Source: Candidatus Yanofskybacteria bacterium (GTDB lineage: Bacteria > Patescibacteriota > Minisyncoccia > 2-02-FULL-40-12 > IGHO2-12-FULL-4). Taken from it: 64,000 nucleotides of DNA. Position 1 is the stretch's first letter, and every line of letters starts with the position of its first letter. The position numbers were made by a program, and so were the translations under genes. A model generated the notes under the pieces. The model ran no database searches and had not been told where the DNA came from. It was given only the letters and a program-made list of their open reading frames with translations. The DNA lies in assembly GCA_016185525.1 (NCBI GenBank), contig JACPNK010000006.1, forward strand, positions 115,440 through 179,439, written 5' to 3'. Shown here piece after piece: positions 7,845-49,397 of the stretch.

Positions 7845-7867
7845 AAAAGACGCCGGGGGCGTCTTTT
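7843..7867. terminator. bidirectional rho-independent terminator
   Basis: aaaagacgccgggggcgtctttt perfect hairpin between convergent rplU and the 7866..8867 gene. Confidence 0.7.
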
Positions 7868-8867
7868 ACATTTTTCTGAAAAATATTTTTTCAATGGCTT
7901 TGGCTATATCCAAATCAAGGACGCTATAGTCTCTGCCTGTTTTTAAAAAGGCTAGGTAAAGTTGTTCTTCTTCAGACAGCAAGTCTTTCGGTCCTAAAAG
8001 TTTTAGCATCCGGTCTTCATTATTCCAGATTGACCACGGATGTCTTTGGGTAAAAAGACCGTCTTTACCGAAAATAAATCTGTAGCTGTAAATCCAATTG
8101 CCAGCATAGCGCTGCATTAGTCTTTTTGCTCTTTGGGCTTCAAGTAATAATTTAGAGTACGCGGTAAATTTATTAAATAACTCGCTGTCTCTAGCAAAGT
8201 TGATGCGGATTGCACTCTGTACCAGCTTGCGGCATTGCGGACAGCTGACGATATGTTTTTTTATTTGTTTCTGGTCGTTGGGAGAAAATATCGGGAAAGT
8301 TCTCCATCCTTTGGCGTCTAAACACATGGGTGTCATAAACCTAGAGTTGTGTTGTAGAAAATGAAGTTGTAAAACCAACTGGCAGTGGGGACAATTTTTA
8401 TGATGTGCTGTAAGCTCCGTCTTTCTGGGCAACAATACTACTTGGTTTTTTCCGATCTCAATTGGGTTAAAGCAGTGCCTGTGGTGTTGCTTTAAGTTGT
8501 TTGTCCACTGGCTTGAGCCGTGTTTTTCACCAAGGCAGGTTCTTTCTTTAATTTCCGATGTTTCTTCTTCGCTTGGTTCCAGATAAAGAATTGGTAATAT
8601 GCGGGGCCAACTTTTGACAAGTCTTTGACAAAACTCGCAAGCGTCCAAATGGACTATTTCTGCGGCCGACAATTTCGGCCAGCATAGTTTGACTAGGTCA
8701 AAGTTAAGACATTGACTTGTTCTCTGGCAAAAATTCTTATACCCAGAATTCACAATTTTTTCTTCCAGGTCTGTTCTCAAGAGGTTGTCTGGTGAGTCAG
8801 GGTTTACACCGGAATCCTTTAACGTTTCCATGTCAAATAATGTTTCCGTGTCCAAGGGAGGCTCCAT
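7866..8867 (-). CDS. hypothetical cysteine-rich protein (multiple CxxC zinc-ribbon pairs)
   Basis: 333 aa with CPHCQ...CPQCRK and CxxxC...CEFC pairs; no family recognised. Confidence 0.5.
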   Translation of the reverse strand: MEPPLDTETLFDMETLKDSGVNPDSPDNLLRTDLEEKIVNSGYKNFCQRTSQCLNFDLVKLCWPKLSAAEIVHLDACEFCQRLVKSWPRILPILYLEPSEEETSEIKERTCLGEKHGSSQWTNNLKQHHRHCFNPIEIGKNQVVLLPRKTELTAHHKNCPHCQLVLQLHFLQHNSRFMTPMCLDAKGWRTFPIFSPNDQKQIKKHIVSCPQCRKLVQSAIRINFARDSELFNKFTAYSKLLLEAQRAKRLMQRYAGNWIYSYRFIFGKDGLFTQRHPWSIWNNEDRMLKLLGPKDLLSEEEQLYLAFLKTGRDYSVLDLDIAKAIEKIFFRKM

Positions 8868-8994: not shown

Positions 8995-9531
8995 TTGTCT
9001 ATAGAAAAAAGGAAACAAGCAGAGGAAGTTTTGTTTGATCTTTGTCGTAAATGTTCTGCTACGCCAGTTTTAGAGGTTTTGTTGGATCTCCGGGACCTAC
9101 ACAATTTTTACAAATTACCCGTTTGGCTGGAAGATGAGAATGGCTGTAATGTTTTTTCGGGTATTGTAAAAAATCTGGCTTCAAAGCCCAAGAAGCAAAG
9201 CTTTTCTATCGTTGAGGCAAATTTTTTGGCCAGCATGCTTTTGTGGCCGGAACTGCAAGAATATGCGGACAGTAATTCGCGTCTTGCAATTCTTTACGCT
9301 TTGGAAAACTCGTCTTTTCACGCTATTTTTGCGACACTGGCTCAACATATGGAGTTTCTGAGCAGTGTTTATGTAAGGGAGCCGGCTACCACTCATCGCA
9401 GTGCCGCTTTGGGCAAAGAGCTGGAAATGATCAGGAGGCTTATTCTAAAATGCGGCAGTGGCACAGAAAGTTTGGTGGCTGAAAACAGGCGGAGAGTTGA
9501 AGAAAAAAAGAAGGAAAACAAAGACACTTAA
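8995..9531 (+). CDS. hypothetical protein
   Basis: 178-aa ORF with an upstream promoter-like sequence and a downstream terminator. Confidence 0.5.
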   Translation: MSIEKRKQAEEVLFDLCRKCSATPVLEVLLDLRDLHNFYKLPVWLEDENGCNVFSGIVKNLASKPKKQSFSIVEANFLASMLLWPELQEYADSNSRLAILYALENSSFHAIFATLAQHMEFLSSVYVREPATTHRSAALGKELEMIRRLILKCGSGTESLVAENRRRVEEKKKENKDT

Positions 9532-9559: not shown

Positions 9560-10195
9560 TCATCTTCTGTTTTTGAACGCGTTTTGAAGAGTGATGGAGT
9601 CAACGTATTCCAGATAAGAACCGCTGGACAAACCTTTGGCCAGCCGGCTGGTTTTTATTTCCATCGGTTTCAGTATTTCTTCCAAGTATAAAGCGGTCGT
9701 CTCCCCTTGGGTGTTTGGGTTGGTGGCAAGAATAATCTCTAGTTCCTTGGTTTGTCCGGCTTGCGGTGAGTTCACTGAACCGTTTGTGTTATTTATTTTG
9801 AAATTTTCAACTCGCGACAAAAGTTCTTTTATTCGCAAGCTCCTTGGGAGCAAGCCTTCAACCGGATCTATGGCTCCGCCAAGGATATGGTACAGGCCGC
9901 GGTACAAGCCTGTTTTTTCTATTGAGCCGAGATCTGTAATTTTTTCCACTACGCATATTTTGGCTTGTTCTCTTTTGGGGTCGGAGCAAATTTGACATTT
10001 TGTTTCTTCGCTAAGGTTAAAACAGTCCTGGCACAGGCTGATACCTTCTGCTAAGTCCATAAGATTTTGGGAAAATTGTTTGACTTCTGTTTTCGGCCAG
10101 CTCAAAAGCGCAACGACAATTCTGGTTGCCTGCCTTGGTCCTATGCCTTGCAGTTTGGAAAAATATTCAACAGATTTTTTAAATTTGAGGGACAC
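9560..10195 (-). CDS. recR: recombination protein RecR
   Basis: HhH (KLQGIGPRQATR), C4 zinc finger (CQDC...CQIC), Toprim and C-terminal domains. The track ORF runs to a GTG at 10276 through a palindromic repeat; an internal GTG at 10195 gives the canonical RecR N-terminal length. Confidence 0.8.
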   Translation of the reverse strand: MSLKFKKSVEYFSKLQGIGPRQATRIVVALLSWPKTEVKQFSQNLMDLAEGISLCQDCFNLSEETKCQICSDPKREQAKICVVEKITDLGSIEKTGLYRGLYHILGGAIDPVEGLLPRSLRIKELLSRVENFKINNTNGSVNSPQAGQTKELEIILATNPNTQGETTALYLEEILKPMEIKTSRLAKGLSSGSYLEYVDSITLQNAFKNRR

Positions 10196-10211
10196 AGTAA
10201 AAAAGTAACTA

Positions 10212-10288
10212 CAGATTTGCGTGTATGCCTCTTTTTTGCGTCGGACTGTCGCCGCCGAACTGCAAAAGAGGCACACACGCCAAATCTG
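10212..10288. repeat. palindromic repeat element (family 2), copy 1
   Basis: ~24-bp near-perfect inverted stems enclose a core ttgcgtcggactgtcgccgccgaactgca; a second copy lies at 29548..29629. Confidence 0.8.
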
Positions 10289-10307
10289 TTATAATTTAAG
10301 CCGTTAT

Positions 10308-11669
10308 CTATATATTACGTGCTAAATTTTTAAATGATGTGCTGTCTTCATCAAAAAACAACTCGACAATTCCAGTAGGTCCGTTTCTGTGTTTTTCAAT
10401 CATAATTTCTGCTATGCCCTTTTTTTCTGATTCTTTTTTAATCTTGTCTTCCCGATAGATCAGCAAAACCACGTCGGCGTCTTGTTCAATACTGCCGGAA
10501 GACCTTAAGTCCGATAGTTTTGGCCTTTGATCTGTGCGCATTTCTGAACTTCTTGAAAGTTGGGAAATGGCCAAGATTGGTATGTTTAGCTCTTTGGCAA
10601 GGGCTTTTAAGTTTCTGGAAATTTCGGTGATTTGCTGGACCTCGCTGTCGATTGCCCGAGTCGGACGTATGAGTTGCAGATAGTCAACTACCAGCAAGCC
10701 TAAGCCGTGTTCGGCTTGAAGCCTTCGGGTCATTGCTCTCATCTGCAATATTGTGGGCGAGGGGATGTCTTCAATAAAAATCGGCGCTTGAGCGAGACGG
10801 TCAAGCGCGGCGGCGATCTTTTCAAAGTCGTTGCCGTCGCCTTCCGAGGAAAGTTTGCCGGTTCTCAATTTCCATAAATTGATATTGGCTTCGGAGGCAA
10901 TCAAGCGGTCAACGATTTGTTCTTTGGCCATTTCTATGCTGAATATTCCTACCGGGACTTTTTCATGCAAAGCGACATGTTTTACAATATCGAGAGCCAA
11001 GCTGGTTTTACCTAAGGACGGTCTGGCGGCCAAGACAATAAGGTCTGATTTCTGCAAACCGGCAAGATAGTTATCCAGGTCATAAAATCCGGTTGAGTAG
11101 CCTCTTAACTTTCCGTCGCCTTTGTGCAGGCGGTCCATTCTTTCAAAAGCCTCTTTTATCAGGGGGCCGCCAATATGGGCAAAAGAAGGTAGGCTTGATT
11201 TTTGAGAGATTGAAAAAAGTCTTTGTTCGGCTTGGTCTAAAATGTTTTCTATCTCTTCATCTTCCTGATAACCCAAACCAATTATGTGGTGGGCGGAATC
11301 AATCAGGTCGCGCAGGATTTTTTTTCTTTCCACAATTTTTGCGTAATGGATTATGTGGGAAGCGGTAGGCACGGAGTTGATTAGTGAAGTTAAATAACCG
11401 GCGCCGCCTATAGTTTCCAACTCTCCGGCTTCTTCCAGTTTGTTGGATAAGCTTAAAAGGTCAATCGGCTGTCTTTTGTCAAAAAGTTCTGACATGGCGG
11501 AAAAAACGATCTGGTGGGCTCGGCTGTAGAAATCTTCCGGCCGCAAGAAATCAGCAATTTTATTAATCGCTTCTTTGTCAATCAGAATGGAACCTAACGT
11601 TGACCTTTCGGCTTCTATGTTTTGCGGCGGTAAAGAATCTTTGGGAATCATAGCGCTCCAATTATACAA
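10308..11669 (-). CDS. dnaB: replicative DNA helicase DnaB
   Basis: N-terminal DnaB domain plus RecA-like domain with Walker A GKT (ARPSLGKTSLAL); no intein. Confidence 0.9.
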   Translation of the reverse strand: MYNWSAMIPKDSLPPQNIEAERSTLGSILIDKEAINKIADFLRPEDFYSRAHQIVFSAMSELFDKRQPIDLLSLSNKLEEAGELETIGGAGYLTSLINSVPTASHIIHYAKIVERKKILRDLIDSAHHIIGLGYQEDEEIENILDQAEQRLFSISQKSSLPSFAHIGGPLIKEAFERMDRLHKGDGKLRGYSTGFYDLDNYLAGLQKSDLIVLAARPSLGKTSLALDIVKHVALHEKVPVGIFSIEMAKEQIVDRLIASEANINLWKLRTGKLSSEGDGNDFEKIAAALDRLAQAPIFIEDIPSPTILQMRAMTRRLQAEHGLGLLVVDYLQLIRPTRAIDSEVQQITEISRNLKALAKELNIPILAISQLSRSSEMRTDQRPKLSDLRSSGSIEQDADVVLLIYREDKIKKESEKKGIAEIMIEKHRNGPTGIVELFFDEDSTSFKNLARNI

Positions 11670-11725: not shown

Positions 11726-13117
11726 CTATCTTGGTTTGACCAAGGGTCCATGCTCCGTGTCTTCTATTTGGTAGCCTTTTGAACTTATTTGCCGGCGCAG
11801 GTCGTCGGCTTCGGAGTAGCGCTTGTCTCGTCGCAGTTTCTCGCGCGTATCAATCATATCCAAGATCTCATTCGGGGTCTTTTTTGTTTTTCTGGGGATT
11901 ATGCCCAAAATGTTGTTGAACTCTTCAAAAAGTTTTTTTATTTTTTTGGCTGATTTTTTATCAACTTTATTTTCAGCCAACAATGGATTTAACTCTTTTA
12001 TCATTTTAAAAATAGCGGCAATGGCTTGAGGAGTGTTAAAATCGTCGTCCATAGCTTCCAAGAATTCCTTCCTTGTTTCAAGCAAGATTTCCCCTGCGCC
12101 ACTGAGAAGTTGAACTTCTAAGCGGCGGATATTTGATAATTTGCGCAGAAATTCTTCGATTCTTTGGATACCGGCCCAAGAAGATTTTATCGCTTCTTCG
12201 CGATAATCAATAGGCGAACGGTAGTGAGTGGACAAAACAAGAAAACGCAAAGCCTCTGCGGAATATTTTTTAAGAGTGTCTCTGATGGTTATAAAGTTGC
12301 CAAGAGATTTGGACATTTTCTGGCCGTTGATAGTCAGAAAACCGGTGTGGAGCCAATACTTTACAAAAGGTTTCTTGCCGGAAATTGACTCCATTTGGGC
12401 TATTTCCGCTTCGTGGTGAGGGAAAATTAAATCTCTGGCTCCGCCGTGCAGATCGTACTGCTCCCCGAAATGCTTTTCGGTAATTGCCGTGTCTTCAATG
12501 TGCCAGCCGGGCCGCCCTTCTCCCAGTTCTGTTTTCCATTTTGGTTCTCCCGGTTTTGAAAACTTCCACAAGTTAAAATCGCCCTTGTTCTTTTTATTGA
12601 CGCTTTCGTCTATGCGACTTACGGCATCTTCCGCGCTTTCGGTTGTGCGACCGGAAAGCTTGCCATATTCCGGAAATTTTTTTAAGTCAAAGTAAAAACC
12701 GTCACTAGGAATTTCGTAAGCAAAGCCTTTTTCCTTCAGCCTTTTAACTTGCGATACGATTTGTTTGATATACTTTGTCGCCGGAGCGTATTTATAGACA
12801 CTGGTAATGCCAAGCGATTTTACATCTTGGTAGTAAGCTTTTTCAAATTCTTTAGCCAGAGTCAGCGGTTCTTTGTTTTCCTGTTTGGCTTTCGCGATTA
12901 TTTTATCTTCTATGTCGGTAATGTTCTGCAGGTATTTAACCCTGTAGCCTTTGTATTTGAGGTATTTGGCGATGACGTCAAAAGAAATATAAGTACGCGC
13001 GTGGCCGATATGCGAGTAATCATAAACCGTCGGTCCGCAGACAAACATATTCACCTTTTTGCCTTGGCGCGGCACAAATTCTTCTTTTTGTCTGGTTAGA
13101 GAATTATAGATTTGCAT
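11726..13117 (-). CDS. cysS: cysteinyl-tRNA synthetase
   Basis: HIGH (HIGHARTY) and KMSKS motifs with class I CysRS architecture. Confidence 0.9.
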   Translation of the reverse strand: MQIYNSLTRQKEEFVPRQGKKVNMFVCGPTVYDYSHIGHARTYISFDVIAKYLKYKGYRVKYLQNITDIEDKIIAKAKQENKEPLTLAKEFEKAYYQDVKSLGITSVYKYAPATKYIKQIVSQVKRLKEKGFAYEIPSDGFYFDLKKFPEYGKLSGRTTESAEDAVSRIDESVNKKNKGDFNLWKFSKPGEPKWKTELGEGRPGWHIEDTAITEKHFGEQYDLHGGARDLIFPHHEAEIAQMESISGKKPFVKYWLHTGFLTINGQKMSKSLGNFITIRDTLKKYSAEALRFLVLSTHYRSPIDYREEAIKSSWAGIQRIEEFLRKLSNIRRLEVQLLSGAGEILLETRKEFLEAMDDDFNTPQAIAAIFKMIKELNPLLAENKVDKKSAKKIKKLFEEFNNILGIIPRKTKKTPNEILDMIDTREKLRRDKRYSEADDLRRQISSKGYQIEDTEHGPLVKPR

Positions 13118-15121: not shown

Positions 15122-15172
15122 CTGTTACAAGTTGTAGGTTATAGGTTTTATGTCTCCCAGAAAATATAAAAA

Positions 15173-15200
15173 ACTTATAACTTATAACTTATAACTTATA
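15173..15200 (+). repeat. perfect heptanucleotide tandem repeat (acttata)x4 abutting the clpC start codon
   Basis: Four exact 7-mers end 3 nt before the ATG at 15204; degenerate inverted copies (aggttat) lie at 15137-15150. Confidence 0.9.
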
Positions 15201-15203
15201 ACA

Positions 15204-17882
15204 ATGTTGTGCGATATTTGCAAAAAAAATCAGGCAACCGGCAGAGTAACGGTCATCAAGAACGGCGCCAGAGAAGTCAAAAACATCTGCCGGCAGTGTT
15301 CGCAAAATTCTTCCGGCTTGGGCGGTTTTAACAGAGGCGGCCGGTCTTCTTCTTACGGCGGCGGTCTCAATGATATTTTTGGGGGTCTTTTGGGTGATAT
15401 ATTCGGACAAGGCGAGGGTCTTGGCGCTCAAGATTTAAATCTGCCGGGTTGGGGCGGGCAGGGACCGTCGGAGGAAAGGATAGACTTTAACGATTATCTT
15501 TCTGACGAAGCCAGTCGGGTTTTGGACAGAGCCGCAAAATTCGCCCAAGACAGTAAAAACCCGGTTGTTGATACCGAGCATCTTTTGCACAGTCTTTTGC
15601 AATCCGAGACCGTTGCTGGTATTTTGAAACAACTTAAAATTGAAACCAGGGACATAGAGAAGGAACTGAAAGAAAACATCGTTTTGGGCAAAGAAAGACC
15701 GGAAGAGCTAGAGTATTCACCGCGCTTAAAAAGGATTTTTGATCTTTCTTTGGATGAGGCCAGGGCACTTAATCATAATTATATCGGTCCGGAACACTTG
15801 GCGCTTGCTTTAGTTAAAGAAGGCGAAGGCGTGGCCAGCCAGGTTTTGAAGAAGTTTGGGTTAGTTGATGCCGGTGTTTTGAGGCAAAAAGTTATTAAAA
15901 AAGTAGGCAGGGGAAACGCGGAGAGCGTAATCAAAATGAACACTCCGACTCTGGACAAATTTTCCAGAGATCTGACCCAGCTTGCCAGAGAGGGCAAGTT
16001 GGATCCGGTTATAGGCAGGTCAAAAGAGATTGAAACAGCCGTGGAAATTTTATCCCGTAGAACAAAAAATAATCCGGTATTAATCGGTGAGCCGGGAGTG
16101 GGTAAAACAGCCATTGTTGAGGGGCTGGCGCAAAGGATTGTCGCCGGCAATGTTCCGGAGTCGTTATTCGGCAAAAGAGTGGTTGAACTGGACTTGGCGG
16201 CTATTTTATCCGGCACCCGTTTCCGAGGCGATATGGAAGAACGGTTAAAAATGATTATTGACGAAATTAAAGACAACAAAGACAAACTGGTTACTTTTAT
16301 TGACGAGATACATCTTTTGGTCGGTATAGGTTCAGGTGGGGAATCAAGCATGGATGCGGCAAATATTTTTAAACCATCTTTGGCTCGTGGCGAACTGCAC
16401 GTTATGGGGGCGACGACTTTGAAAGAGTACAAAAAATATATTGAAAAAGATCAGGCTTTGGAAAGGCGTTTCCAGCCGATTACTGTGCCGGAACCTACGG
16501 TAGAGCAGACAATAGAAATTCTTAGGGGTTTGCGCGACAGATACGAATCGCATCACCGGATTAAAATTTTAGATGAGTCTTTGGTTGCCGCCGCCGAACT
16601 TTCTAACAGGTATATCACTTCCAGATTTTTACCCGATAAGGCTATTGATTTAATGGACCAGGCGGCCGCTCGGGTCAGAATACAATCTACCGTGGAACCG
16701 GATGAAGTCAGGGGAATGGATGAAAAAATCCACTCCTTAAAAAAGGAACTGGAGGCGGTTCAGCGTTCAAAGAAAACCAAAGAATTTGAAGCGATAAAAA
16801 AGGAAATCTCCGATCTTGATAAAAAAAGAGAGAGTTCTTTTGACAAGTGGCAGGAGCAGAAAGCCAGGACAATACCGGAGGTTAACGCTAAGTCAATCGC
16901 AGAAGTGGTATCCAGGCTGACTGGCGTACCGGTCAGCGACTTAACCGAAGAGGAAAGAGAAAAACTTTTAAATCTTGAGAAAAAACTGGGCTCCAGGGTA
17001 ATTGGCCAAGGGGAAGCTATTGAAGCGGTCTCGCAGGCAATAAGGCGTTCCAGAGCGGGTCTAGGCGATCCAAACAGGCCTATTTCCTCATTCCTTTTCT
17101 TGGGGCCGACCGGAGTCGGTAAAACTGAACTTTCCCGTTCTTTGGCTTTTGTCTTGTTTGGCGATCAGGAAGCGATGATCAGACTGGACATGTCCGAATA
17201 TATGGAGAGGCACAACGTTGCTCGGCTGGTAGGCGCGCCTCCGGGGTATGTCGGCTACGAGGAAGGCGGACAACTGACCGAAGCGGTGCGCCGCCGTCCG
17301 CACTCAATAATTCTTTTGGATGAAATTGAAAAAGCACATCCGGATGTTTTTAATATTCTGCTCCAGGTTTTAGAGGATGGCCGTCTGACAGACGGTCAAG
17401 GACGTTTGGTTGATTTTTCAAATACCGTGATAATCGCCACCAGCAATATCGGTTTTGAGCTGATTCAGCACGAATTTGACAAAGAAGAAAAAAAGAGAAT
17501 GCCTTACGAAGAGTTAAGAACAAAAATTAAAGAAGAACTCAAGCATCATTTCAGGCCGGAGTTTCTTAATCGCATAGACGAAATAATTGTTTTCAGAAGT
17601 TTGTCAAAAGAACAGATAGGCCAGATTGTTAAATTACAGCTGGTTTTCCTGAAGGCCAAATTAAACCACTCCGGTTTTGGTTTGGAAGTAAGCCAGCCGG
17701 CTGTTGATGCCATTGTTGAAAAAGGTTACGACCCGCATTTTGGGGCAAGAGAACTAAGGCGGATTATTCAAAGAGAGGTTGAAAATAGGATTTCCGACAT
17801 GATACTTAAAGATAGACCCAAGAAGGGTTCGGTCGTAGATGTGGATTTTAAAAACAAAGAGTTTGTTCTATCATTGAAGTAA
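15204..17882 (+). CDS. clpC: ClpC/ClpB-type double AAA+ chaperone with N-terminal ClpX-like C4 zinc-binding domain
   Basis: N-terminal C-x2-C-x19-C-x2-C, a Gly-rich linker, two Clp_N repeats, two Walker A/B AAA modules, a short middle domain and a VGYEEGG motif. Confidence 0.85.
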   Translation: MLCDICKKNQATGRVTVIKNGAREVKNICRQCSQNSSGLGGFNRGGRSSSYGGGLNDIFGGLLGDIFGQGEGLGAQDLNLPGWGGQGPSEERIDFNDYLSDEASRVLDRAAKFAQDSKNPVVDTEHLLHSLLQSETVAGILKQLKIETRDIEKELKENIVLGKERPEELEYSPRLKRIFDLSLDEARALNHNYIGPEHLALALVKEGEGVASQVLKKFGLVDAGVLRQKVIKKVGRGNAESVIKMNTPTLDKFSRDLTQLAREGKLDPVIGRSKEIETAVEILSRRTKNNPVLIGEPGVGKTAIVEGLAQRIVAGNVPESLFGKRVVELDLAAILSGTRFRGDMEERLKMIIDEIKDNKDKLVTFIDEIHLLVGIGSGGESSMDAANIFKPSLARGELHVMGATTLKEYKKYIEKDQALERRFQPITVPEPTVEQTIEILRGLRDRYESHHRIKILDESLVAAAELSNRYITSRFLPDKAIDLMDQAAARVRIQSTVEPDEVRGMDEKIHSLKKELEAVQRSKKTKEFEAIKKEISDLDKKRESSFDKWQEQKARTIPEVNAKSIAEVVSRLTGVPVSDLTEEEREKLLNLEKKLGSRVIGQGEAIEAVSQAIRRSRAGLGDPNRPISSFLFLGPTGVGKTELSRSLAFVLFGDQEAMIRLDMSEYMERHNVARLVGAPPGYVGYEEGGQLTEAVRRRPHSIILLDEIEKAHPDVFNILLQVLEDGRLTDGQGRLVDFSNTVIIATSNIGFELIQHEFDKEEKKRMPYEELRTKIKEELKHHFRPEFLNRIDEIIVFRSLSKEQIGQIVKLQLVFLKAKLNHSGFGLEVSQPAVDAIVEKGYDPHFGARELRRIIQREVENRISDMILKDRPKKGSVVDVDFKNKEFVLSLK

Positions 17883-25469: not shown

Positions 25470-25610
25470 AAAAATTAATCTAATTTCTAATTAACCTAAT
25501 TGACCTAAACAATACCCAACTGCCAAGTTCCAAAAAGGTTTTAGTTGTTGGTCATTGTGGATTTGGGATTTATTTAGAATAATTAGAGCAATTAGAAATT
25601 AGAAATTTCT
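25470..25610. repeat. AT-rich repeated intergenic element (copy 1) with aattaga/ctaatt motifs
   Basis: Shares a 14-nt identical block (aattaacctaatt) and caattagaa motifs with 27270..27402. Confidence 0.7.
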
Positions 25611-26339: not shown

Positions 26340-27269
26340 TTAGACTTTTTCCAAAAGTCTACCGTAACCGTTTATAAACTCTTTGGTGTTTAGCACTTTT
26401 CCTCCTTCAAGCTGGAGTTTTAACAGCTCTAAATAATCCTTAGCGCAAGGCATAATCAAAAGACCGTTTTTTTGATAAATTTTTCCACTTAGAAGTTCTC
26501 CACTTAGAAGTTCAACTTCTAAGTGACTTTTATGAATTTTGCAGTCAATAATTTTTAATATTTTATTTTGCCACTTAAACCATATTCCCGGCCATTTGTG
26601 AAAGGCGCGAAATTGGTTGTAAATTTCTTCGGCTGTTTTGTGCCAGTTTATTTTGCCGTCTTCTTTGGTAATAATTTTAGTGAAGGTGGCTTGCGACTCG
26701 TCTTGCGGTTGAGGTGTGGTTTTTCCACTAAGATATTTCGGTAATAACTTAAGTAATAAGCCAGCACCCTTTTTCACCAGACGCATTTTTAGGTCATAGT
26801 ATTTGTCATCCGGCGCGATTGGTTCTTGTTCCATTCCTAAGACGGGTCCGTGGTCAACTTTTTCGTCCAGCACAAAGACCGTTACGCCGGTCTCTTTTTC
26901 GCCGTTAAGCAGGGCGTACTGGATGGGGGACGGGCCGCGGTATTTCGGTAACAGCGAACCGTGGATATTGAGTAAACCATGTTTCGGTAGGTGCAAAAAC
27001 CGTTCAGGAATAATTTTTCCGTAATCTACAACAATTCCGACTGTGGATTGTTTGGCAATTTCTTCAATGCGAGCCAAAGACGGGTCATCTTTTTTAAAAT
27101 TTTCCGGCTGAAGCACTTCAATATTGTGAGATAGGGCTAACTGCTCGGCGGGTGTTGCCGTTTGGCTGTCCGGCGCGGTTACCACAGCCACAACAGTATA
27201 GTCAGCTTGAATCAGCGCTTCCAATACGGGCGTGGCAAAATCCGAAGTGCCAAAGAAAATAGTTTTCAT
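26340..27269 (-). CDS. fmt: methionyl-tRNA formyltransferase
   Basis: N-terminal formyltransferase domain (IFFGTSDFA, HGSLLPKYRG) and C-terminal domain; downstream of def. Confidence 0.9.
   Translation of the reverse strand: MKTIFFGTSDFATPVLEALIQADYTVVAVVTAPDSQTATPAEQLALSHNIEVLQPENFKKDDPSLARIEEIAKQSTVGIVVDYGKIIPERFLHLPKHGLLNIHGSLLPKYRGPSPIQYALLNGEKETGVTVFVLDEKVDHGPVLGMEQEPIAPDDKYYDLKMRLVKKGAGLLLKLLPKYLSGKTTPQPQDESQATFTKIITKEDGKINWHKTAEEIYNQFRAFHKWPGIWFKWQNKILKIIDCKIHKSHLEVELLSGELLSGKIYQKNGLLIMPCAKDYLELLKLQLEGGKVLNTKEFINGYGRLLEKV
26486..26525. repeat. REP-like palindrome (RAYT-associated family) in-frame inside fmt
   Basis: 25-bp perfect palindrome cacttagaagttcaacttctaagtg plus adjacent half-site direct repeat ccacttagaagtt; encodes LEVELLSGELLSGK. 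Confidence 0.85.
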
Positions 27270-28101: not shown

Positions 28102-29967
28102 CTAAACAACTTCTATTTGCCATCCGCTTGGCACTAAGCGTAACAACTCGTTGCGCCGCGCCCCGTAGTGAGCCGAAGGTTCTACTATGGGGTTTTTTAC
28201 TACTTTTAAAACAATTTCTTGCGTATGTAGTCCTTTTTCTTTTAATCCTGCATTTGGTCCGATAATTTCAATTTCTTTCCCATAATTCTTAATTCCTAAT
28301 TCATGATTCAACCTTTCTCTTACTATTTCCGCCTCTCTTTCCGCTGTTCTCGAATCTTGGTGGCGGAAGATTAATTTAATAAGTTCGGCAAATGGGGGAT
28401 AGCTGAATTCTTTTCTAGCCTCAAGCTCTTCTTCGTAAAAACTTTTAAAGTCTTGGCTTAAAATTGTTTTTACCACTCTTGCGTCGGAATCGTAGCCTTG
28501 GATTAAGGTTTTTTCTGTCATTTGAGACAAAATAAAAACTATTCTTAAGGCTTCTTCTTCTGTTCCAAAATCAACAAAATTTAGTAAAGATTCTAAGTTT
28601 AATATACCAACTAAATCGGCTTTTAGCAAGCGCTGATAGCTCAATATTTTTTGTGTTGTCAGCAGGATTGCCGGTCCCGGATTTTTAAATTGGTCTATAA
28701 TTTTTTCTTCCTCTTTTTGCGGAGTGTCGCTGCTTAAGGCCAGTATTTTTGGCGAAGTTATATTCTGGTCTTTGAAAAACTTTACCAACTTTTCCTCGGC
28801 TTTTTCTATGCCCAAGCCCTTATATTCCAAAACTGATTTGTTGCAGTTGGGGCAGACATTTAATGTTGGCTGTATGTTTTGACAGTGATGACATTTTAAA
28901 ATTGTTTTAGGTTTTAAGTTATAAGTTGTAAGTTTAAAGGCAGTCAGGTTTCGATCGCAGTTTGGACATCGGGGAATATAGCCGCAGTTTTGGCACAGAA
29001 GATACGGGGCATAGCCTTTGCGCGGTACGAATATTATAATTTTGTTTTTTTGCTGTACCGCCGATTTCAGTTGCTCTTTAAGTTCAGCGCTGAAAATTGA
29101 AAAATTGGTATTTTTAATTTCACCGACCATGTTGGCGAATGAGATATCAACTTTTGTTTTTTGGGGCAATGTCTCTTCTCCAAATTCAAAATATGTTTCT
29201 ACTTTCGGCAAAGAATCGTTTATGATTAATTTGGCTCCGTATTCTTTGGCGGTTCGTCTGGCCAAAATGCCGGTATCGTATTTGGGGGTGTAGTCGGAAC
29301 GGTAGGCGATATTTGACTCGGCTTCCACAATTATTTCTTTGAGGTTGTTAAAAGGCAAAAACAAAGCGACTCTGGTGCCGACTATTGTTTTTATTTCTCC
29401 GTTTTTAACTCTTTGCCAAATATCAAAATATTCTTTGGTTGGAGTACTGCTTGAAAGAAAAACGGGATTTTCTTTTTTGTATTTCTCCAAGAAGTGTTCG
29501 GCCATTATTTTTTCGGGAGTTAAAATAAGTTTTTGTCCTTGGTTACTGAGGTCTGGCGAGTATGCCTCTTCTTTGCGTCGGACTTGTCGCCGACGAACTG
29601 CAGAAGAGGCATACTCGCCAGACCTCTTAAGCAAAAATGCCGGTAACATGGCTTTAACGCACAAACCCAGTGGCGCAAAATATTTTACCGAGAGCCACAA
29701 AGCGATATTTAGCTGATGTTGGTTGAGAACAGGCTGTTCTTTTAGAATTTTGCCTATTGGTTTCAGCTCAAAATCAGCCTCTTTTTTAAGCTTGATTTTT
29801 AACTCCGCCAGACTTTTTGAAGCCAACACGACTGCGGTTATCTTTCTTTTTCTTATCTCAACTTCAACCAAAGCGCCTGCTGGTAGCTTTTCTTCATAAA
29901 AATAACTCAAGATCTGGTCCTGATTTCTGGGAATTGCGGTTAGGGGGATAACCTCAAGAATATACAT
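28102..29967 (-). CDS. priA: primosomal protein N' (PriA) with degenerate helicase motifs
   Basis: N-terminal 3'-DNA-binding domain, a Cys-rich zinc-binding insert (CQNCGY, CPNCD, CHHCQ, CPNC) and a C-terminal domain. Walker A reads SSSTPTKE and DEAH reads EAES, so both are degenerate. Carries two in-frame repeat insertions. Confidence 0.75.
   Translation of the reverse strand: MYILEVIPLTAIPRNQDQILSYFYEEKLPAGALVEVEIRKRKITAVVLASKSLAELKIKLKKEADFELKPIGKILKEQPVLNQHQLNIALWLSVKYFAPLGLCVKAMLPAFLLKRSGEYASSAVRRRQVRRKEEAYSPDLSNQGQKLILTPEKIMAEHFLEKYKKENPVFLSSSTPTKEYFDIWQRVKNGEIKTIVGTRVALFLPFNNLKEIIVEAESNIAYRSDYTPKYDTGILARRTAKEYGAKLIINDSLPKVETYFEFGEETLPQKTKVDISFANMVGEIKNTNFSIFSAELKEQLKSAVQQKNKIIIFVPRKGYAPYLLCQNCGYIPRCPNCDRNLTAFKLTTYNLKPKTILKCHHCQNIQPTLNVCPNCNKSVLEYKGLGIEKAEEKLVKFFKDQNITSPKILALSSDTPQKEEEKIIDQFKNPGPAILLTTQKILSYQRLLKADLVGILNLESLLNFVDFGTEEEALRIVFILSQMTEKTLIQGYDSDARVVKTILSQDFKSFYEEELEARKEFSYPPFAELIKLIFRHQDSRTAEREAEIVRERLNHELGIKNYGKEIEIIGPNAGLKEKGLHTQEIVLKVVKNPIVEPSAHYGARRNELLRLVPSGWQIEVV
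28909..28940. repeat. gttttaagttataagtt dispersed repeat (family 3) in-frame in priA
   Basis: 17 of 17 nt identical to 50151..50167; degenerate agttata heptamers; encodes KLTTYNLKPKT. Confidence 0.75.
29548..29629. repeat. palindromic repeat element (family 2), copy 2, in-frame in priA
   Basis: Perfect 24-bp inverted stems (gaggtctggcgagtatgcctcttc / gaagaggcatactcgccagacctc) enclose the same core as 10212..10288. Confidence 0.85.
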
Positions 29968-33847: not shown

Positions 33848-33883
33848 TACTGAGAAGCTACTGAGAAGTTGAACTTATCAGTA
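33848..33883. repeat. REP palindrome with half-site direct repeat, 5' flank of the RAYT gene
   Basis: tactgagaag x2 half-sites, then the 25-bp palindrome tactgagaagttgaacttatcagta. Confidence 0.85.
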
Positions 33884-33905
33884 GAACATGTTAAATTTCT
33901 GAAAT

Positions 33906-34550
33906 ATGCATAAAGAATATTTTACCAATGGGGAATTTTACCATGTGTATAATCGCGGAAACAATAAGCGAAAAATTTTTTTGGATCAAAGAGACTTTAA
34001 AAGATTTTTTCAAAGCATACGGGAATTCAATTCGGAAGAACCGATTGGTAGTATATATCTTAATTCTTTTAAGGACGCCTCGCTTAGAAGTTCAACTTCT
34101 AAGTTAGTTGATTTTGTTTGTTTTTGTTTAAATCCAAATCATTATCATTTTATTCTCAAGCAACTAAAAGAAAGGGGTATTGAAAAGTTTTTACATAGAC
34201 TTGGCACGGGTTATACTAAATATTTTAATGAAAAACATAAATGCAGTGGCTCTCTTTTTCAGGGCAGGTATAAAGCGATACACTTAAACTCTAATGAATA
34301 CCTACTACATCTTAGTGCCTATGTGAATTTAAATTATGAAGTTCACCAACTGAGAAGTTCAACTTATCAGTGTGATTATAAATCTAGTTGGGCAGAATAT
34401 CAAAACAACTTGGTAGAAAGTATATGTAATAAAGACATTGTACTTTCTCAGTTTAGAAACTTTGATAAGTATAGGGAATTTGCAGTTAATGCTATTCAAA
34501 TAAGTAGGACCAAAAAAGATATGGAAAAGTTGTTATTGGAAGAGGTCTGA
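33906..34550 (+). CDS. REP-associated tyrosine transposase (RAYT; IS200-like HuH Y1 transposase, TnpA_REP)
   Basis: YHVYNRGNNKRKIF N-terminus, HuH motif NHYHFIL, GRYKA and Y..N C-terminal tyrosine region are typical of COG1943 RAYTs; the gene is flanked by inverted REPs. Confidence 0.8.
   Translation: MHKEYFTNGEFYHVYNRGNNKRKIFLDQRDFKRFFQSIREFNSEEPIGSIYLNSFKDASLRSSTSKLVDFVCFCLNPNHYHFILKQLKERGIEKFLHRLGTGYTKYFNEKHKCSGSLFQGRYKAIHLNSNEYLLHLSAYVNLNYEVHQLRSSTYQCDYKSSWAEYQNNLVESICNKDIVLSQFRNFDKYREFAVNAIQISRTKKDMEKLLLEEV
34083..34103. repeat. REP palindrome inside the RAYT coding sequence, copy 1 (in-frame)
   Basis: cttagaagttcaacttctaag encoding LRSSTSK. Confidence 0.85.
34350..34370. repeat. REP palindrome inside the RAYT coding sequence, copy 2 (in-frame)
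   Basis: ctgagaagttcaacttatcag encoding LRSSTYQ. Confidence 0.8.
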
Positions 34551-34557
34551 CTCTGAT

Positions 34558-34645
34558 CACTGATAAGTCACTGATAAGTTGAACTTCTCAGTAAAAACTT
34601 CTCAGTAAAAACTTCTCAGTAAACTTCTCAGTAAATTTCTCAGTA
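34558..34645. repeat. REP palindrome plus tandem half-site array, 3' flank of the RAYT gene
   Basis: cactgataagt x2, palindrome cactgataagttgaacttctcagta (inverted relative to the 5' REP), then (aa)aacttctcagta x4 tandem. Confidence 0.9.
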
Positions 34646-34749
34646 AAAGGTTTCGAACTATTACGCGGCAGTGCATCGTGTATTTGACTACTTGCAGGAT
34701 ATCTGCTAGGGTCGATTTGCTTTTTAATAATTAGTGAAAGGATAGAAAA

Positions 34750-37180: not shown

Positions 37181-37726
37181 TCATTTTCTGTTCTGGTTCC
37201 CCCATTTGAAAGGTTTTTCTCTTTGTGATTTATAAAACATCATTCTGTTTCTGATTTCTTGAAGTTTTTTGTGGTCAAGGCCGTTCATTTCTTTTTTTGT
37301 AAATCCTCTCTGGCCTTTTGTAACATTTAAACCCTCTCTTCTGTTTTTGTTTACTATTTTAACCGCGCAGCTCCATAGTTGGAAGTCAATCCCCTTTTTT
37401 GCGTAGAGTTTATGTCTTTTAAAAAATGGTATAATTTTTTCTACTAGATCTTTCGGATTTTGGACCGAGAATCTAACCTGATTCTGTTTTTTTATTATAA
37501 CGACCGACCCACAGCCAAAAGTTTCTTTGATTAAGTTTAATATGTTAAAATCGTCAGATCTTAAAACAATGGCAAATTCAGTATTCCAGTAAAAATACTC
37601 TCGGAATTTTTTATTGTTCTTATTTTGTTTTTTATCCCTTCTAAATTTAAGAGCAAAACAACCCTCCCCGTCTACAAAGCCAGCTATGTAATTGCCAGGC
37701 AACTTAGCGACTGTATTTTTATCCAT
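37181..37726 (-). CDS. free-standing LAGLIDADG homing endonuclease
   Basis: LAGLIDADG motif (YIAGFVDGEGCF) 12 aa after the internal Met; the track ORF extends to 37792; ~181 aa, the single-motif homodimeric class. Confidence 0.8.
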   Translation of the reverse strand: MDKNTVAKLPGNYIAGFVDGEGCFALKFRRDKKQNKNNKKFREYFYWNTEFAIVLRSDDFNILNLIKETFGCGSVVIIKKQNQVRFSVQNPKDLVEKIIPFFKRHKLYAKKGIDFQLWSCAVKIVNKNRREGLNVTKGQRGFTKKEMNGLDHKKLQEIRNRMMFYKSQREKPFKWGNQNRK

Positions 37727-37824
37727 ATTATAAATTATACTACAATCACATTGCGTCGCACAAAAGTTTAAAACGAAGGTTATCAACAGCAACCAAAAAG
37801 TAAAAAACTCCTTTGGTTAGGAGT

Positions 37825-39519
37825 CTACAATTCGTCAATTAATTTTTTAAATTTTTCTATAATTTCTTTTTTTCTGGGTTTAAGCGTCGGAGTTAAGATT
37901 AAATCTGTTTGGCTGCTTAAAATCGCTATGTTGCCTATTTTCATTAATCCCTTCCCTATCGCCCCGGTTTTGGACTTTAGAGTTTCGTGAAGTTTCGCAA
38001 GACCTTTTTTGTCAGAGGGTCTGTTGTTTAAAAAAATGAGAGCAATTTGATACGGTTTGTTTTTTCCACATATGACAACTTCTGCTTGGGGGTCAACGTC
38101 TCTTATTTTGTCCTTAACTTCTTGCTCCAGTTTCTGGATGCTTTCTCCTGTCACGTACTCCCCTTGTGCCGTTTTGTAGCCTTCGCCGATTCTTCCTGTT
38201 ATAGATATGGTTTTGTTTGAAAAGTTAAACTTTCCAGTGTCTTCAGTATGATAGAGCCGTTCTCGCAACGGTTCTTCCGTGGGCGGATGGGTTTGGTAAA
38301 TTTTTTCTTCAAAATGGTTTTCATTGGCTTTTGGGTTGTTGTAGTAGCCGAGCATGACGGCTTTTCCTGTTACCACGATTTCTTTGCTGAAAGGTTCAAG
38401 AAAAACTTGGTTTGTGTTTCCTATAACCGCACCGTTCAAGAGTAGCGGTCCGGCCGTTTCCGTTTGGCCGTAAATGTCCATTATGTTTAGACCAAGTTTG
38501 CGGAAAAAATTAATCTCGTGGCGGCTTATTTCCGATCCGGCGCTGATTGCGATTCTTGTATGATCTAGGCCGAGCTCTTGTTTAATTTTGTCTTTAAGAA
38601 AATAAATCGGGACTAATCCGGCTAACTTACCGGCAAGTTTTAGTTTTTCTTTGACTCCGGTCTCAATGTTTATCCAAACTTTGGGTACGCCCAAAAAAGC
38701 GGTTGGCCTTACCCTTTTGAGTATTGACGTAAATTTTTCTTTCAGTTTTTCCCTGTCGGTTGAAAATTCGGTAAAGTATACCGTATATCCTCCGATTAAC
38801 TGGCCAAAAAAAGAGGCAATAAGTTCAGAAATGTGTCCCAATGTCATATAAGATAAAACTCTATCTTCGGGACCAATTTGCAAGGCTTTAATTACAGCCT
38901 TGGTTCTGTCTAAGATATTTTCATGCGACAGCATCACTCCCTTTGGTCCGCCGGTGGTGCCGGAAGTGTAGGGCATTATCAGTAGGCGGTTTGGGTTGCG
39001 GACTTTGTCATTGTGGTAAAGCCTTTTAACCCCTTTGTTTTTGCATATCTTTTTTCCCAATGCCAGTAACTGTTCAACTGTTATTGTGGTGTGGCCATTT
39101 TCTTTGTATTCATCTGCCAAACACTCACTGATGAGAGTAATTTTAGGTTGGCAATGGTCTAAGATGGCCTTGACTTTGTCAGGCTCTTTTAAAAGCATGG
39201 GGTGTATCGGCACGGGTACCCCCCCTGCCATAATAATTCCCAGAATAGTGAAAAAAGATTCCGGCAGATTTACCGGTACTATGGCGACAAAGTTTTCTTT
39301 TTCTGATTTTGACGGGTCAACTAAATTTAAGTCTTGCAAAGCGATTGCCGCTGAAAATGCGTGACAGTGCAAGTAATCTTCCCAAGAGTATTTTTCTTTA
39401 GTGCCGTCTTTTTTAAGCAAGACCAAGGCCGGTAACTGATGACCTTTTCTTCTTAATTCTTCTTCCTTTTCAAAGAGAGTAGTAATAATATCTGCCACTT
39501 TCCCGTCCCCTATTTTCAA
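37825..39519 (-). CDS. AMP-dependent synthetase/ligase (long-chain fatty acid--CoA ligase-like)
   Basis: AMP-binding motif YTSGTTGGPKGV and an acyl-activating fold. Confidence 0.8.
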   Translation of the reverse strand: MKIGDGKVADIITTLFEKEEELRRKGHQLPALVLLKKDGTKEKYSWEDYLHCHAFSAAIALQDLNLVDPSKSEKENFVAIVPVNLPESFFTILGIIMAGGVPVPIHPMLLKEPDKVKAILDHCQPKITLISECLADEYKENGHTTITVEQLLALGKKICKNKGVKRLYHNDKVRNPNRLLIMPYTSGTTGGPKGVMLSHENILDRTKAVIKALQIGPEDRVLSYMTLGHISELIASFFGQLIGGYTVYFTEFSTDREKLKEKFTSILKRVRPTAFLGVPKVWINIETGVKEKLKLAGKLAGLVPIYFLKDKIKQELGLDHTRIAISAGSEISRHEINFFRKLGLNIMDIYGQTETAGPLLLNGAVIGNTNQVFLEPFSKEIVVTGKAVMLGYYNNPKANENHFEEKIYQTHPPTEEPLRERLYHTEDTGKFNFSNKTISITGRIGEGYKTAQGEYVTGESIQKLEQEVKDKIRDVDPQAEVVICGKNKPYQIALIFLNNRPSDKKGLAKLHETLKSKTGAIGKGLMKIGNIAILSSQTDLILTPTLKPRKKEIIEKFKKLIDEL

Positions 39520-48285: not shown

Positions 48286-49397
48286 AGTTCTTTGAAGATT
48301 TGTATCAGTTTTTCAGTATGTTTTTCCCAGTTGAATTTTGATGTTATTCGCGGACTGTTCAGAATAACTTCTTCCATTTTCTGTCTGTTGTTTAACGCCC
48401 GTTCTATTGCCGACGCTATCTGCTGCGGGTCGGTCTCGTCTTGGACGAAAAAAGCGCTGCCTTCGTAAATTTCTTTGTTCAAATCGTTATTCTTAACCAG
48501 AGGCGGTGTGCCCAAGGCGAGAGCTTCAAGCGGAGGCAGTCCCATGGCTTCGGAGGTGGAAAGGTAAATAAACAGCTTGGCTCCGGCAATTAAAAATTTC
48601 AAATCTTCATCTTTGTCTATATAATCATAATGCATAACCCGCTGACCGCCTAATCTTTTATTGGTTTCTTGAATAAGACTTTTTAAAATCGGCGGATTGT
48701 ATTTGTCTTGGCCGACCAAAATTAGTTTCAGGTCTGGAAATTTATCCGCAAGTATTTCAAAAGCTTGAATTGTTTCTTTGGCTCTTCTGCGGGGTAAGGC
48801 TTGGCCGACATAGAGTAAATAGGTTCTAAGTTTTAGGTTATAGGTTATAGGCTTATTTGGTTGGTCTATGCCGAGATAATTCACCATTATTCTTTCGGGG
48901 GGGATTTTGAAGAGTTGAGAAATTTCTTTTTTGGCGGATTCAGTGAAAGTTGTGATTTTGGTGGCTCTTTTTGCCGCCCAGTTGCTGAAAAGCAGATAAC
49001 TTATGCGGTACTTCCAGGGATGGGTGCCGAATTTATATTCGTAGTAAACATCGTTGGTTAAAACCACTAAAGACTTACCCAAGAAAAAAAGAGGCAGCAT
49101 AAAACCGGGGAAAAAGGTTGCGTTAATTTTGTCGCGCAGGCAAGCCAAAGGCAAAAGAACGTGAAAGAATATATTATAAGATGGGCGCAGAAAAGGCAGT
49201 TTTAAAACCTTTTTTACGAAGATCGGATTGTTGAGATAGGGGTCGTCCGGGACGAACCCTTTGAAGTATAAGTAAAATTTGAACTCTTTTGCGAGTTCAG
49301 ATTTTTTTGATATCTCTTCCAGTATCTTTGATAAATGTCTGCCTATCCCCCATCTTTTATTTTCCAAATTGTGGCACTCTATGGCAATTTTATACAT
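48270..49397 (-). CDS. family 4 (GT1-fold) glycosyltransferase
   Basis: C-terminal EAMGLPPLEALALGTPPL GT-B signature; the track ORF runs to 49490, and the internal Met at 49397 avoids overlap. Confidence 0.75.
   Translation of the reverse strand: MYKIAIECHNLENKRWGIGRHLSKILEEISKKSELAKEFKFYLYFKGFVPDDPYLNNPIFVKKVLKLPFLRPSYNIFFHVLLPLACLRDKINATFFPGFMLPLFFLGKSLVVLTNDVYYEYKFGTHPWKYRISYLLFSNWAAKRATKITTFTESAKKEISQLFKIPPERIMVNYLGIDQPNKPITYNLKLRTYLLYVGQALPRRRAKETIQAFEILADKFPDLKLILVGQDKYNPPILKSLIQETNKRLGGQRVMHYDYIDKDEDLKFLIAGAKLFIYLSTSEAMGLPPLEALALGTPPLVKNNDLNKEIYEGSAFFVQDETDPQQIASAIERALNNRQKMEEVILNSPRITSKFNWEKHTEKLIQIFKELCSIR
48828..48856. repeat. family 3 repeat (agttttaggttataggttatagg) in-frame in the GT4 gene
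   Basis: Encodes KPITYNLKLRTY. Confidence 0.7.

Follow-up and report, generated by a model that had tools for sequence, protein, structure and literature searches.

What kind of element places long, almost perfectly paired hairpins with the same centre both inside a helicase gene and in the spacer between two other genes, and what keeps the arms paired when their sequences differ? The question is raised by a 64-kb stretch of DNA from Candidatus Yanofskybacteria (tiny groundwater bacteria of the Parcubacteria / Candidate Phyla Radiation, CPR; 40.5% G+C), which we call the window and which was analysed at its full length. One such hairpin lies within priA and another between dnaB and recR. We find that both hairpins belong to a previously undescribed family of palindromic repeats of ~80 bp, which is specific to the Ca. 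Yanofskybacteria lineage. It is, on balance, likely to be a dispersed palindromic DNA element similar to the Rickettsia palindromic elements (RPE) or to the REPIN hairpins, with pairing kept at the DNA level.

Two hairpins with a common core

Copies are read on the strand that carries GCAGTTCG, i.e., the minus strand for both copies of the window. Both form long hairpins that enclose a common asymmetric core of 28-29 nt. They are alike over 61 nt at 90% identity (blastn E 6e-14), and the 30-nt core pattern has 0.00 chance occurrences expected in the window. The original prediction had named two copies with a shared core, and both were recovered, at 10211-10289 and 29548-29626. A third copy was not found in the 64-kb window by blastn-short and covariance-model search.

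The genic copy (29548..29626, minus strand; covariance model R1: 101.2 bits, E 4.1e-24) covers codons 114-140 of its host gene priA (28102..29967, minus strand). It consists of a 5′ arm (29602-29626), the core GCAGTTCGTCGGCGACAAGTCCGACGCAA (29573-29601) with the 8-nt apical loop CGACAAGT, and a 3′ arm (29548-29572). The arms form a stem around a 29-nt loop that is perfect, as had been predicted, with a length of 25 bp and not 24. Also as predicted, the copy is read in frame, and KRSGEYASSAVRRRQVRRKEEAYSPDL makes up PriA residues 114-140.

The intergenic copy (10211..10289, minus strand; R1: 92.1 bits, E 1.2e-21) is composed of a 5′ arm (10264-10289), the core GCAGTTCGGCGGCGACAGTCCGACGCAA (10236-10263) with the 7-nt apical loop CGACAGT, and a 3′ arm (10211-10235). 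Over 26 positions, its stem has 24 Watson-Crick pairs, a single G.T and a bulged G. The outer arms had been described as different between the copies and self-complementary within each. They are copy-specific and paired, but not unrelated, since cAGaTtTGGCGtG and gAGgTcTGGCGaG are homologous, with compensated substitutions between them. Both copies fold far below the energies of shuffled sequences. This holds for RNA folding, which had been proposed as a check (z -6.9 to -11.8), as well as for DNA folding (z -7.1 to -12.2).

The dnaB-recR copy is located 15 nt 5′ of the start of recR (9560..10195, minus strand; 211 aa, GTG start 10195, deposited as MBI2676961.1) and 18 nt 3′ of the stop of dnaB (10308..11669, minus strand; Pfam DnaB / DnaB_C on the orthologous gene of L040, where L-numbers denote fetched loci of related genomes and metagenomes). 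Given that the deposited RecR has 211 aa from GTG 10195, the element is upstream of recR and outside the gene. A longer GTG-initiated open reading frame (ORF; 9560-10276, 238 aa) runs through the copy. That is, the suggested N-terminal extension of RecR exists as a reading frame, but it is an artefact of the stop-free element; the 238-aa form was not found in the protein collection.

The family in related genomes

With pattern scans and the covariance model together, we obtained 21 distinct copies, every one of them from a Ca. Yanofskybacteria/Paceibacterota assembly. All genomes sampled are metagenome-assembled genomes (MAGs) or metagenome contigs. The scan pattern was built from positions common to the priA-site copies, and most copies were gathered with a pattern that requires the core, such that core invariance over the 21 copies is partly by construction; the sets free of this bias are the priA site and the recR site only. 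Within the species-representative genomes, the pattern scan gave 12 true loci in 4 Yanofskybacteria/Paceibacterota MAGs, six of them in the single MAG JACOZX01 (at least 6 copies there), next to three chance matches in GC-rich genomes. Another 11 loci with the core pattern stem from JGI metagenomes. The search for the core beyond the window, also proposed as a check, hence locates it elsewhere and confines it to one lineage. A scan of viral contigs for the core gave 0 matches. The covariance model R1 added one extra copy in 308 kb of fetched DNA. Copy density is 2 per 64 kb in the window, and 20 distinct copies align nearly gap-free (alignment A3).

With regard to known families, Rfam 15 reports only tRNA for the window at gathering scores. 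When two loci were searched at E up to 10, only sub-threshold miRNA-hairpin noise was seen on the element. Full-text literature searches did not find 'palindromic element' together with Candidate Phyla Radiation, nor 'miniature inverted-repeat' in the leading CPR papers listed.

One locus has the typical form of a palindrome misassembly. At L039:805-896, a reverse-complement core stands right after the element and is followed by a run of N; this flipped core is most likely misassembled and, less probably, reflects a mixture of flip and flop reads in that sample. As an account of the family, an assembly artefact at inverted repeats, or hairpins formed by chance, is extremely improbable and effectively excluded. 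The same elements are present at orthologous sites in independent NCBI, ENA, JGI and Logan assemblies, the element is shorter than a sequencing read, and the chance expectation of 0.00 is accompanied by fold z-scores that reach -12.

Pairing within the element

The element is dimorphic in length (80 or 81 nt). Its overall stem of 15-26 bp is copy-specific, but all stems derive from the consensus GCGAGTATGCCTCTTTT. From the outside, a copy-specific outer helix of 4-9 bp is followed in about half of the copies by a purine-rich 3x3 internal loop (GAA/GAA and variants); the others show continuous pairing or a bulge. Then comes a middle helix of 15-17 bp with consensus GCGAGTATGCCTCTTTT / AAAAGAGGCATACTCGC. 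The core is made up of unpaired GCAGTT, a 6-bp inner helix CGNNGG / CCNNCG around the apical loop, and unpaired CAA. At the NN positions of the inner helix, we see either covariation (TC/GA, AG/CT) or opposed purines (GC/GA, AC/GG), and the apical loop is CGACAGT (7 nt) or CGAC-N-AGT (8 nt). Conservation rises toward the centre, and the outermost 4-9 bp differ between copies.

Besides selection for a hairpin, the original prediction had considered a templated insertion mechanism. In the sense of arms copied from the target, this is not supported and was rejected, since the arms of all copies derive from one consensus. The partial 5′ arm found in priA of L006 is a remnant and not a pre-existing target.

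In alignment A3 (20 copies), 85% of the cells are paired and 21/31 pairs show two-sided change. We count 89 compensated cells; shuffles give 25 +/- 4 and slid controls 16-37. None of 500 shuffles matches the observed percentage paired, number of two-sided pairs, compensated cells or covariation score, while the observed value for further pair types is matched by 49/500. Aligning arm against arm for all 21 copies gives 402 Watson-Crick pairs, 3 G.T, 2 A.C, 3 other mismatches and 6 bulges. Thus, wobble pairs are nearly absent and G.U is not in excess over A.C in arm pairs. Such pairing statistics are unusual for RNA helices and as expected of arms copied from one another.

The strong covariation and the conserved internal and apical loops would also suit a structured cis-acting RNA (processing/RNase III site, stabiliser or attenuator) or a small RNA gene. 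Intergenic copies nearly fill the spacers between co-directional genes, and ~10/14 independent sites are co-oriented with transcription. Two further features hint at one functional strand: the purines of the GAA/GAA internal loops are confined to one strand, and in 16/21 copies the fold is slightly more stable for the core-sense strand. On the other hand, G.U accounts for just 3 in 416 positions without excess over A.C, Rfam offers no match at either threshold, and there is no terminator-like tail and no promoter (none found around the recR copy in a scan of 9900-10600). At four sites, among them IleRS and a priA ortholog with a flipped core, the element runs antisense to transcription, and a perfect 25-bp helix within essential coding sequence is an odd location for a regulator. 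Given the scarce wobble, the two orientations relative to transcription and the flipped priA core, RNA-level selection is not favoured, and we rate an RNA function as quite improbable. Where the original prediction had left the choice between DNA and RNA, we infer that a hairpin constraint at the DNA level fits better.

Changes at orthologous sites

The four priA copies were retrieved by protein homology and are hence free of core-pattern bias. At this site, 24-28/29 core positions are identical (83-97%), compared to 40-59% identity at fourfold-degenerate sites and 12-23/25 identical positions in the arms. Conservation of the core thus exceeds that of neutral sites by far. The priA copies of the window and of L005 have the derived closing pair TCTGCAG/CAAAGAAG in common, but their cores are in opposite orientation; therefore, the core flip occurred in place. 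In addition, several compensated pairs differ between these two copies, which alters residues on both arms. The inner helix reads TC/GA in the window/L005 pair and AG/CT in the L002/L009 pair.

Compensated change is also observed in the stem at the second orthologous site. The recR-site element is also present in L013, L034 and L039; the L013 and L034 copies differ by one compensated T-A to C-G change, and the window copy has one uncompensated G.T. Copies within one genome differ in core subtype while orthologs have the same subtype, so gene conversion is not homogenising the family.

RecR-guided retrieval of the dnaB-recR spacer from relatives returned the element itself or, in the more distant L040 and L042, hairpins built around other cores. 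The stop-free hairpin of L042 leads to a gene call for a RecR of 245 aa (P0125). Similar arms around other cores are found at other loci, too. Possibly, it is the arms that unite a broader superfamily in which the centres can be exchanged.

Placement in and between genes

Most copies (13/21) are intergenic and lie in very short spacers, which they usually fill almost completely, with 0-25 nt to the flanking genes. The remaining 8/21 are in frame inside long ORFs of at least four unrelated genes. These are priA in four genomes (sense in the window, L002 and L009; antisense in L005), a UvrD/AddB-like helicase (L029 and L030, between the motifs GLEFDYVF and RRLFYVALTRA), IleRS (L026, antisense, just before WTTTPWTLP) and a GT4-type glycosyltransferase (L025). 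The IleRS copy is an insertion in a variable loop by comparison with 8 homologs, where 5-15 other residues or another insert take its place. Copies are found in both orientations; counted per independent site, ~10 run with transcription and 4 against it, with shared ancestry uncorrected. GC skew gave no usable replication direction for relating orientation to fork direction.

Genic copies differ from intergenic ones in length. The 8-nt apical loop is found in 8/8 genic but only 2/13 intergenic copies, which by independent site corresponds to 4/4 vs. 2/10 (Fisher p ~0.015). Among the copies of core subtype GC/GA, L030 alone is genic, and L030 alone has the long loop. With regard to reading frames, 17/21 copies, 12/13 of the intergenic copies among them, are open in all six frames (central 66 nt), where composition-matched shuffles have on average 2.4 open frames. 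The 19-nt arm segments contain 7 stop/anti-stop trinucleotides vs. 63 +/- 6 in shuffles (minimum 42 in 2000); these tests are uncorrected for shared ancestry, which leaves the effect size uncertain. TA steps occur in arms only as R-TA-Y, and the arms are still stop-avoiding despite many differing positions. The avoidance of stops in six frames and the genic-only length form both look like adaptations of the element to coding DNA.

Could instead the encoded 27-residue peptide be the selected unit, with the DNA palindrome incidental? The priA segment is in frame and basic/Arg-rich in both orientations, and related PriA orthologs retain a segment at the site. However, three of six frames are used in the genic copies, which results in unrelated peptides in different genes (SSAVRRRQVRRKEE; LLQFVGDKSDAKK; SFLRGTSRPRTAKEA). 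The flip alters the peptide and keeps the DNA, compensated arm changes alter residues on both sides, the peptide is predicted to be disordered, and 13/21 copies are not within genes at all. A protein-level module is thus highly unlikely and, like an artefact, effectively excluded. With arm changes and a flip that both rewrite the peptide, the family provides a clean natural case of a nucleic-acid pairing constraint that overrides protein constraint inside a gene.

The priA insertion site

The 27 element-encoded residues of PriA are predicted to be disordered (predicted local distance difference test, pLDDT, ~31; <50 for residues 116-142; model mean 81). They sit between the 3′-DNA-binding domain and the helicase core. 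In comparison with the structure 4nl4, query residues 11-121 align to chain positions 27-126 and residues 144-558 to 261-676; i.e., the element sits where the PriA of this clade is without ~110 canonical residues (winged helix + Walker A). The insertion site is thus a permissive domain-deletion junction.

A comparison of PriA orthologs had been proposed as well. Where identity is 69-76%, the orthologs show a related segment at the element site, whereas at <=50% identity a longer, unrelated segment is found, so the element-encoded segment is not conserved in distant orthologs. Among the relatives, the site exists in four states: the element in the same orientation (L002, L009), the element with reverse-complemented core (L005), a different palindrome AAGGTCSGACCTT (L006, L010, L012; L006 keeps the 5′ arm remnant), and no hairpin (L011).

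The palindrome AAGGTC[C/G]GACCTT, single or paired, was observed at L006:10384-10396, L010:410-422, L012:561-597 and L022:7796-7808. At the priA site of other Yanofskybacteria it is translated as RSDLES..KRSDL; it also occurs at other places and is absent from the window.

As a side observation on the same protein, distant Parcubacteria PriA orthologs have a degenerate segment without GKT, and the Walker B position of the window PriA reads EAES. Judged from these motifs, the PriA of this clade may not be an active ATPase.

Possible spread, persistence and candidate enzyme

If the family is, as we favour, a dispersed palindromic DNA element of the RPE or REPIN type, it would spread as selfish DNA. 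Its survival in gene-dense genomes could rest on translatability in any frame combined with landing in permissive protein loops. The constraint would act on a DNA hairpin, single-stranded or cruciform, and not on RNA. One arm might serve as intrastrand template for the other and so restore complementarity, in the manner of quasipalindrome correction, and the same templating would also account for the core flip. The conserved core could be a cis site read by a hairpin-acting protein, with a Y1/HUH (RAYT-like) transposase of the 33906-34550 type as candidate.

This ORF (33906-34550, plus strand, 214 aa) matches Pfam Y1_Tnp (PF01797, E 2.6e-6) above the Pfam cut-off; its best NCBIfam match, REP-associated tyrosine transposase (RAYT), is below cut-off. 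A search of solved structures with the protein gave no match at E up to 1. Homologs of the gene are located ~750 nt from copies of the core-bearing family in L017 and L037. The 3′ flanks of the two window copies have 8-mers in common with the palindrome that flanks the window Y1 gene (family 1). A link of the core-bearing family to this gene via the 8-mers was rejected, because they were not seen in other copies and no core-flanked Y1 gene was found. A Y1/HUH (RAYT-like) transposase is therefore the leading candidate enzyme as a lead only. With RAYT-like Y1 transposases in the same genomes, the question of hairpin maintenance is testable in vitro.

The surroundings of the Y1 genes are repeat-rich themselves. 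Family 1, CTACTGAGAAGTT[G/C]AACTTATCAGTAG, forms inverted copies at 33849-33886 and 34559-34596 around the window gene, followed by ~5 tandem ACTTCTCAGTAAA units (region 33849-34650). It is also in frame inside the gene (34081-34104, 34349-34372) and present at 12100-12125 and 26499-26529. Family 1 is probably the first palindromic family of the earlier note on this DNA, and together with the Y1 gene it resembles a REP-RAYT system, here within the CPR. The Y1 genes at L017:6960-7724 and L037:4500-5250 have 41% identity to the window Y1 and are flanked by a genome-specific palindrome ATCCAAGG(AGGCT / GCAGC)CCTTGGAT, one copy of which lies in frame inside the gene at an equivalent position.

A number of observations weigh against a selfish, mobile DNA element. 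Among the 21 copies, we see no direct repeat (i.e., target-site duplication), no common flanking motif, and no near-identical copies at different loci. No clean empty site was seen, where the element-free comparisons span genomes at 65-75% protein identity, too distant to define ends. Respective cases are the window glycosyltransferase, which is without the element of L025 and has the same loop occupied by another repeat, the ABC-transporter spacer, which is 3 nt in L002 where L006 has a copy, and IleRS, whose closest ortholog is 64% identical and for which no DNA-level empty site was found among the orthologs. That is, no mobility event is seen, and the copies look old and vertically inherited. 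The termini are most variable and the centre most conserved, which is the reverse of a classical MITE (miniature inverted-repeat transposable element). Purifying selection on the core along with compensated change is expected of a host-useful element, not of a decaying selfish relic. Within the dnaB-recR spacer, L040:2910-3000 and L042:1670-1775 carry hairpins whose homologous arms (GCGGTATTATCTCTTC.., GCGAGCAACCCTCTCT..) enclose different, longer cores. The window Y1 gene is flanked by a different palindrome, CTACTGAGAAGTTSAACTTATCAGTAG of family 1; a Y1 gene flanked by the core was not found, and a tblastn search of 328 kb of loci gave no further Y1 gene. The hints of one functional strand, the core-requiring pattern and the uncorrected stop-avoidance and orientation statistics, all given above, belong here as well.

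In a more novel reading, the element would not be decaying selfish DNA but an ancient, vertically inherited hairpin replicator or signal, with an asymmetric core under purifying selection at the nucleic-acid level, also within essential genes and whatever its orientation. It would be the REPIN-like partner of an HUH/Y1 enzyme or the site of a hairpin-binding host protein, and its six-frame translatability and 3n form would have evolved for life in coding DNA, where genomes have next to no intergenic space. We consider this possible, yet less likely than a dispersed selfish element.

Alternatively, the hairpin, as single-stranded DNA or cruciform, could be a DNA structural signal useful to the host. 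A cellular protein, e.g., of replication restart, primosome loading, supercoiling or nucleoid organisation, would bind to it, and purifying selection would maintain it wherever it lies, also inside genes. Core conservation far above neutral sites and compensated changes in both stems, each at orthologous positions, are in line with such a signal, as is the persistence of a hairpin in the dnaB-recR spacer across RecR orthologs of 71-93% identity. A function independent of orientation would suit both the flip and stems made of Watson-Crick pairs only, and several copies are in or beside replication-repair genes (priA, dnaB-recR, UvrD-like helicase). But the copies are few and dispersed over positions as different as IleRS, a glycosyltransferase and an ABC transporter spacer; relatives carry different cores at the dnaB-recR spacer; and the priA orthologs of L006, L010, L012 and L011 have another palindrome or no hairpin, so the element is dispensable there. 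Furthermore, six-frame stop avoidance suits a survivor of random insertion, while a placed signal would not need it, and the protein partner is putative. Overall, a host signal is unlikely, and we retain the dispersed palindromic element as the preferred explanation.

Comparison with known systems

Judged by analogy, the family would work most like RPE and also resembles the REP/REPIN hairpins, without being a member of either. As in RPE, short palindromic repeats without a transposase of their own are found in a small, gene-dense genome, both intergenic and in frame within unrelated housekeeping genes, which stay intact. RPE peptides are reportedly located in permissive, surface-like regions. 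The differences concern the host phylum (CPR / Patescibacteria here, the genus Rickettsia for RPE families 1-10) and the sequence, which is probably unrelated, judged by host lineage and the lack of an Rfam match. The family is also shorter (~80 bp here vs. ~100-150 bp) and has far fewer copies (2 in the 64-kb window; at least 6 in one MAG). Moreover, three frames and both orientations are used here vs. one conserved peptide frame in RPE, and the family combines a conserved asymmetric centre with freely covarying arms and a genic/intergenic length dimorphism.

With REP/REPIN, which are recognised as single-stranded DNA hairpins, the family shares vertically persistent hairpin repeats with covarying stems and the presence of RAYT-like Y1 genes in the genomes. 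A similar layout is found at L035:5901-5964, where CCAAGGGGACCCCTTGG, a short palindrome of RAYT type, sits at the apex of a long copy-specific hairpin. In contrast, the conserved GTAG that accompanies the imperfect 20-40-nt palindrome of REP is present 3′ of the arm only in recR-site copies (CTGTAGTTAC) and absent from other flanks, the arms are not REP palindromes, and the RAYT-like genes seen are flanked by other palindromes and not, as in REP-RAYT systems, by inverted copies of the repeat itself. In addition, REP are extragenic and of high copy number, whereas 8/21 copies are genic here and copy number is low.

Bacterial MITEs are described in a review (PMC10969869) as small, non-coding, multi-copy and forming stable stem-loops, sometimes fused in frame to ORFs; it also reports palindromic insertions in frame within housekeeping genes of the reduced Rickettsia genome. 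The family resembles MITEs (Correia, ERIC, Chunjie, QMITE) in being ~80 bp long (<500 bp), non-coding and multi-copy with stable stem-loops. However, MITEs are defined by conserved terminal inverted repeats that match a parent insertion sequence (IS), plus target-site duplications. Here, the termini are most variable, we see no duplication, and neither the window nor the loci showed a parent IS. Further, the family is GC-rich in an AT-rich genome, while MITEs are typically AT-rich. IS200/IS605-derived elements have distinct left and right subterminal hairpins and insert 3′ of a fixed tetra- or pentanucleotide, whereas we observe one whole-element hairpin and no common flank motif.

Quasipalindrome correction (Ripley-type template switching) and plastid hairpin inversions are known mutational processes. 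Correction and hairpin-loop inversion explain diverging Watson-Crick arms, rare wobble and loop flipping, but leave the conserved asymmetric core, the retained GAA/GAA loops and the dispersal to many loci unexplained.

An intrinsic terminator consists of a GC-rich hairpin directly followed by a T tract; here, T runs, if present, belong to the outer helix or are separated from the hairpin by 6 nt, and some copies are within genes. Integron attC sites have conserved R''/R' ends (RYYYAAC / GTTRRRY) and a variable centre and sit by cassettes and an integrase. The family shows the opposite pattern without GTTRRRY ends, and its neighbours are housekeeping genes.

Further repeats and reading frames

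CPR / Patescibacteria genomes are regarded as highly streamlined. Nonetheless, short repeats colonise essential coding sequences, i.e., the palindromic family and at least two other repeat families in the window. Annotation and assembly are affected as well, with false N-terminal extensions (RecR of 245 aa), lineage-specific disordered inserts and one scaffold broken at a palindrome.

A third repeat family of the window is the 7-nt unit AACYTAW with 4-5 repeats per run (15171-15208, 28898-28939, 48821-48856, 50142-50177). One run is intergenic, and three are in frame, namely in priA (TTYNLKPKT) and two glycosyltransferases (ITYNLKLRT; KTYNLKLIT). The ITYNLKLRT run occupies the loop where L025 carries the palindromic element. 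A related peptide, TTYNLQPTTY, is contained in the Yanofskybacteria IleRS P0241. 

Between the genes for ABC transporter ATPase and permease, the spacer of the window is taken up by an imperfect 41-nt inverted repeat (25479-25603, 78% complementary); elsewhere, this spacer holds a copy of the palindromic element (L006) or is 3 nt long (L002). A further hairpin family is found at L006:8452-8529 and L025:2502-2584. It has 15-18-bp arms (..AATCAGCCA[T/C]AC..) around a 47-48-nt nested hairpin core CCCACT[T/C]GAAAA.TCCCGAGCGA.GAGTCG.GGGTCGA.AGTGGG.

Finally, three ORFs of the window are of interest by themselves. A 333-aa cysteine-rich ORF (7866-8867) with repeated CPxC / HCxxC motifs has no significant Pfam/NCBIfam match, and the same is true for the adjoining 178-aa ORF (8995-9531). 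On the minus strand, a free-standing LAGLIDADG endonuclease ORF (37181-37792, Pfam E 3.8e-21) is located directly 3′ of a 564-aa gene (37825-39519).

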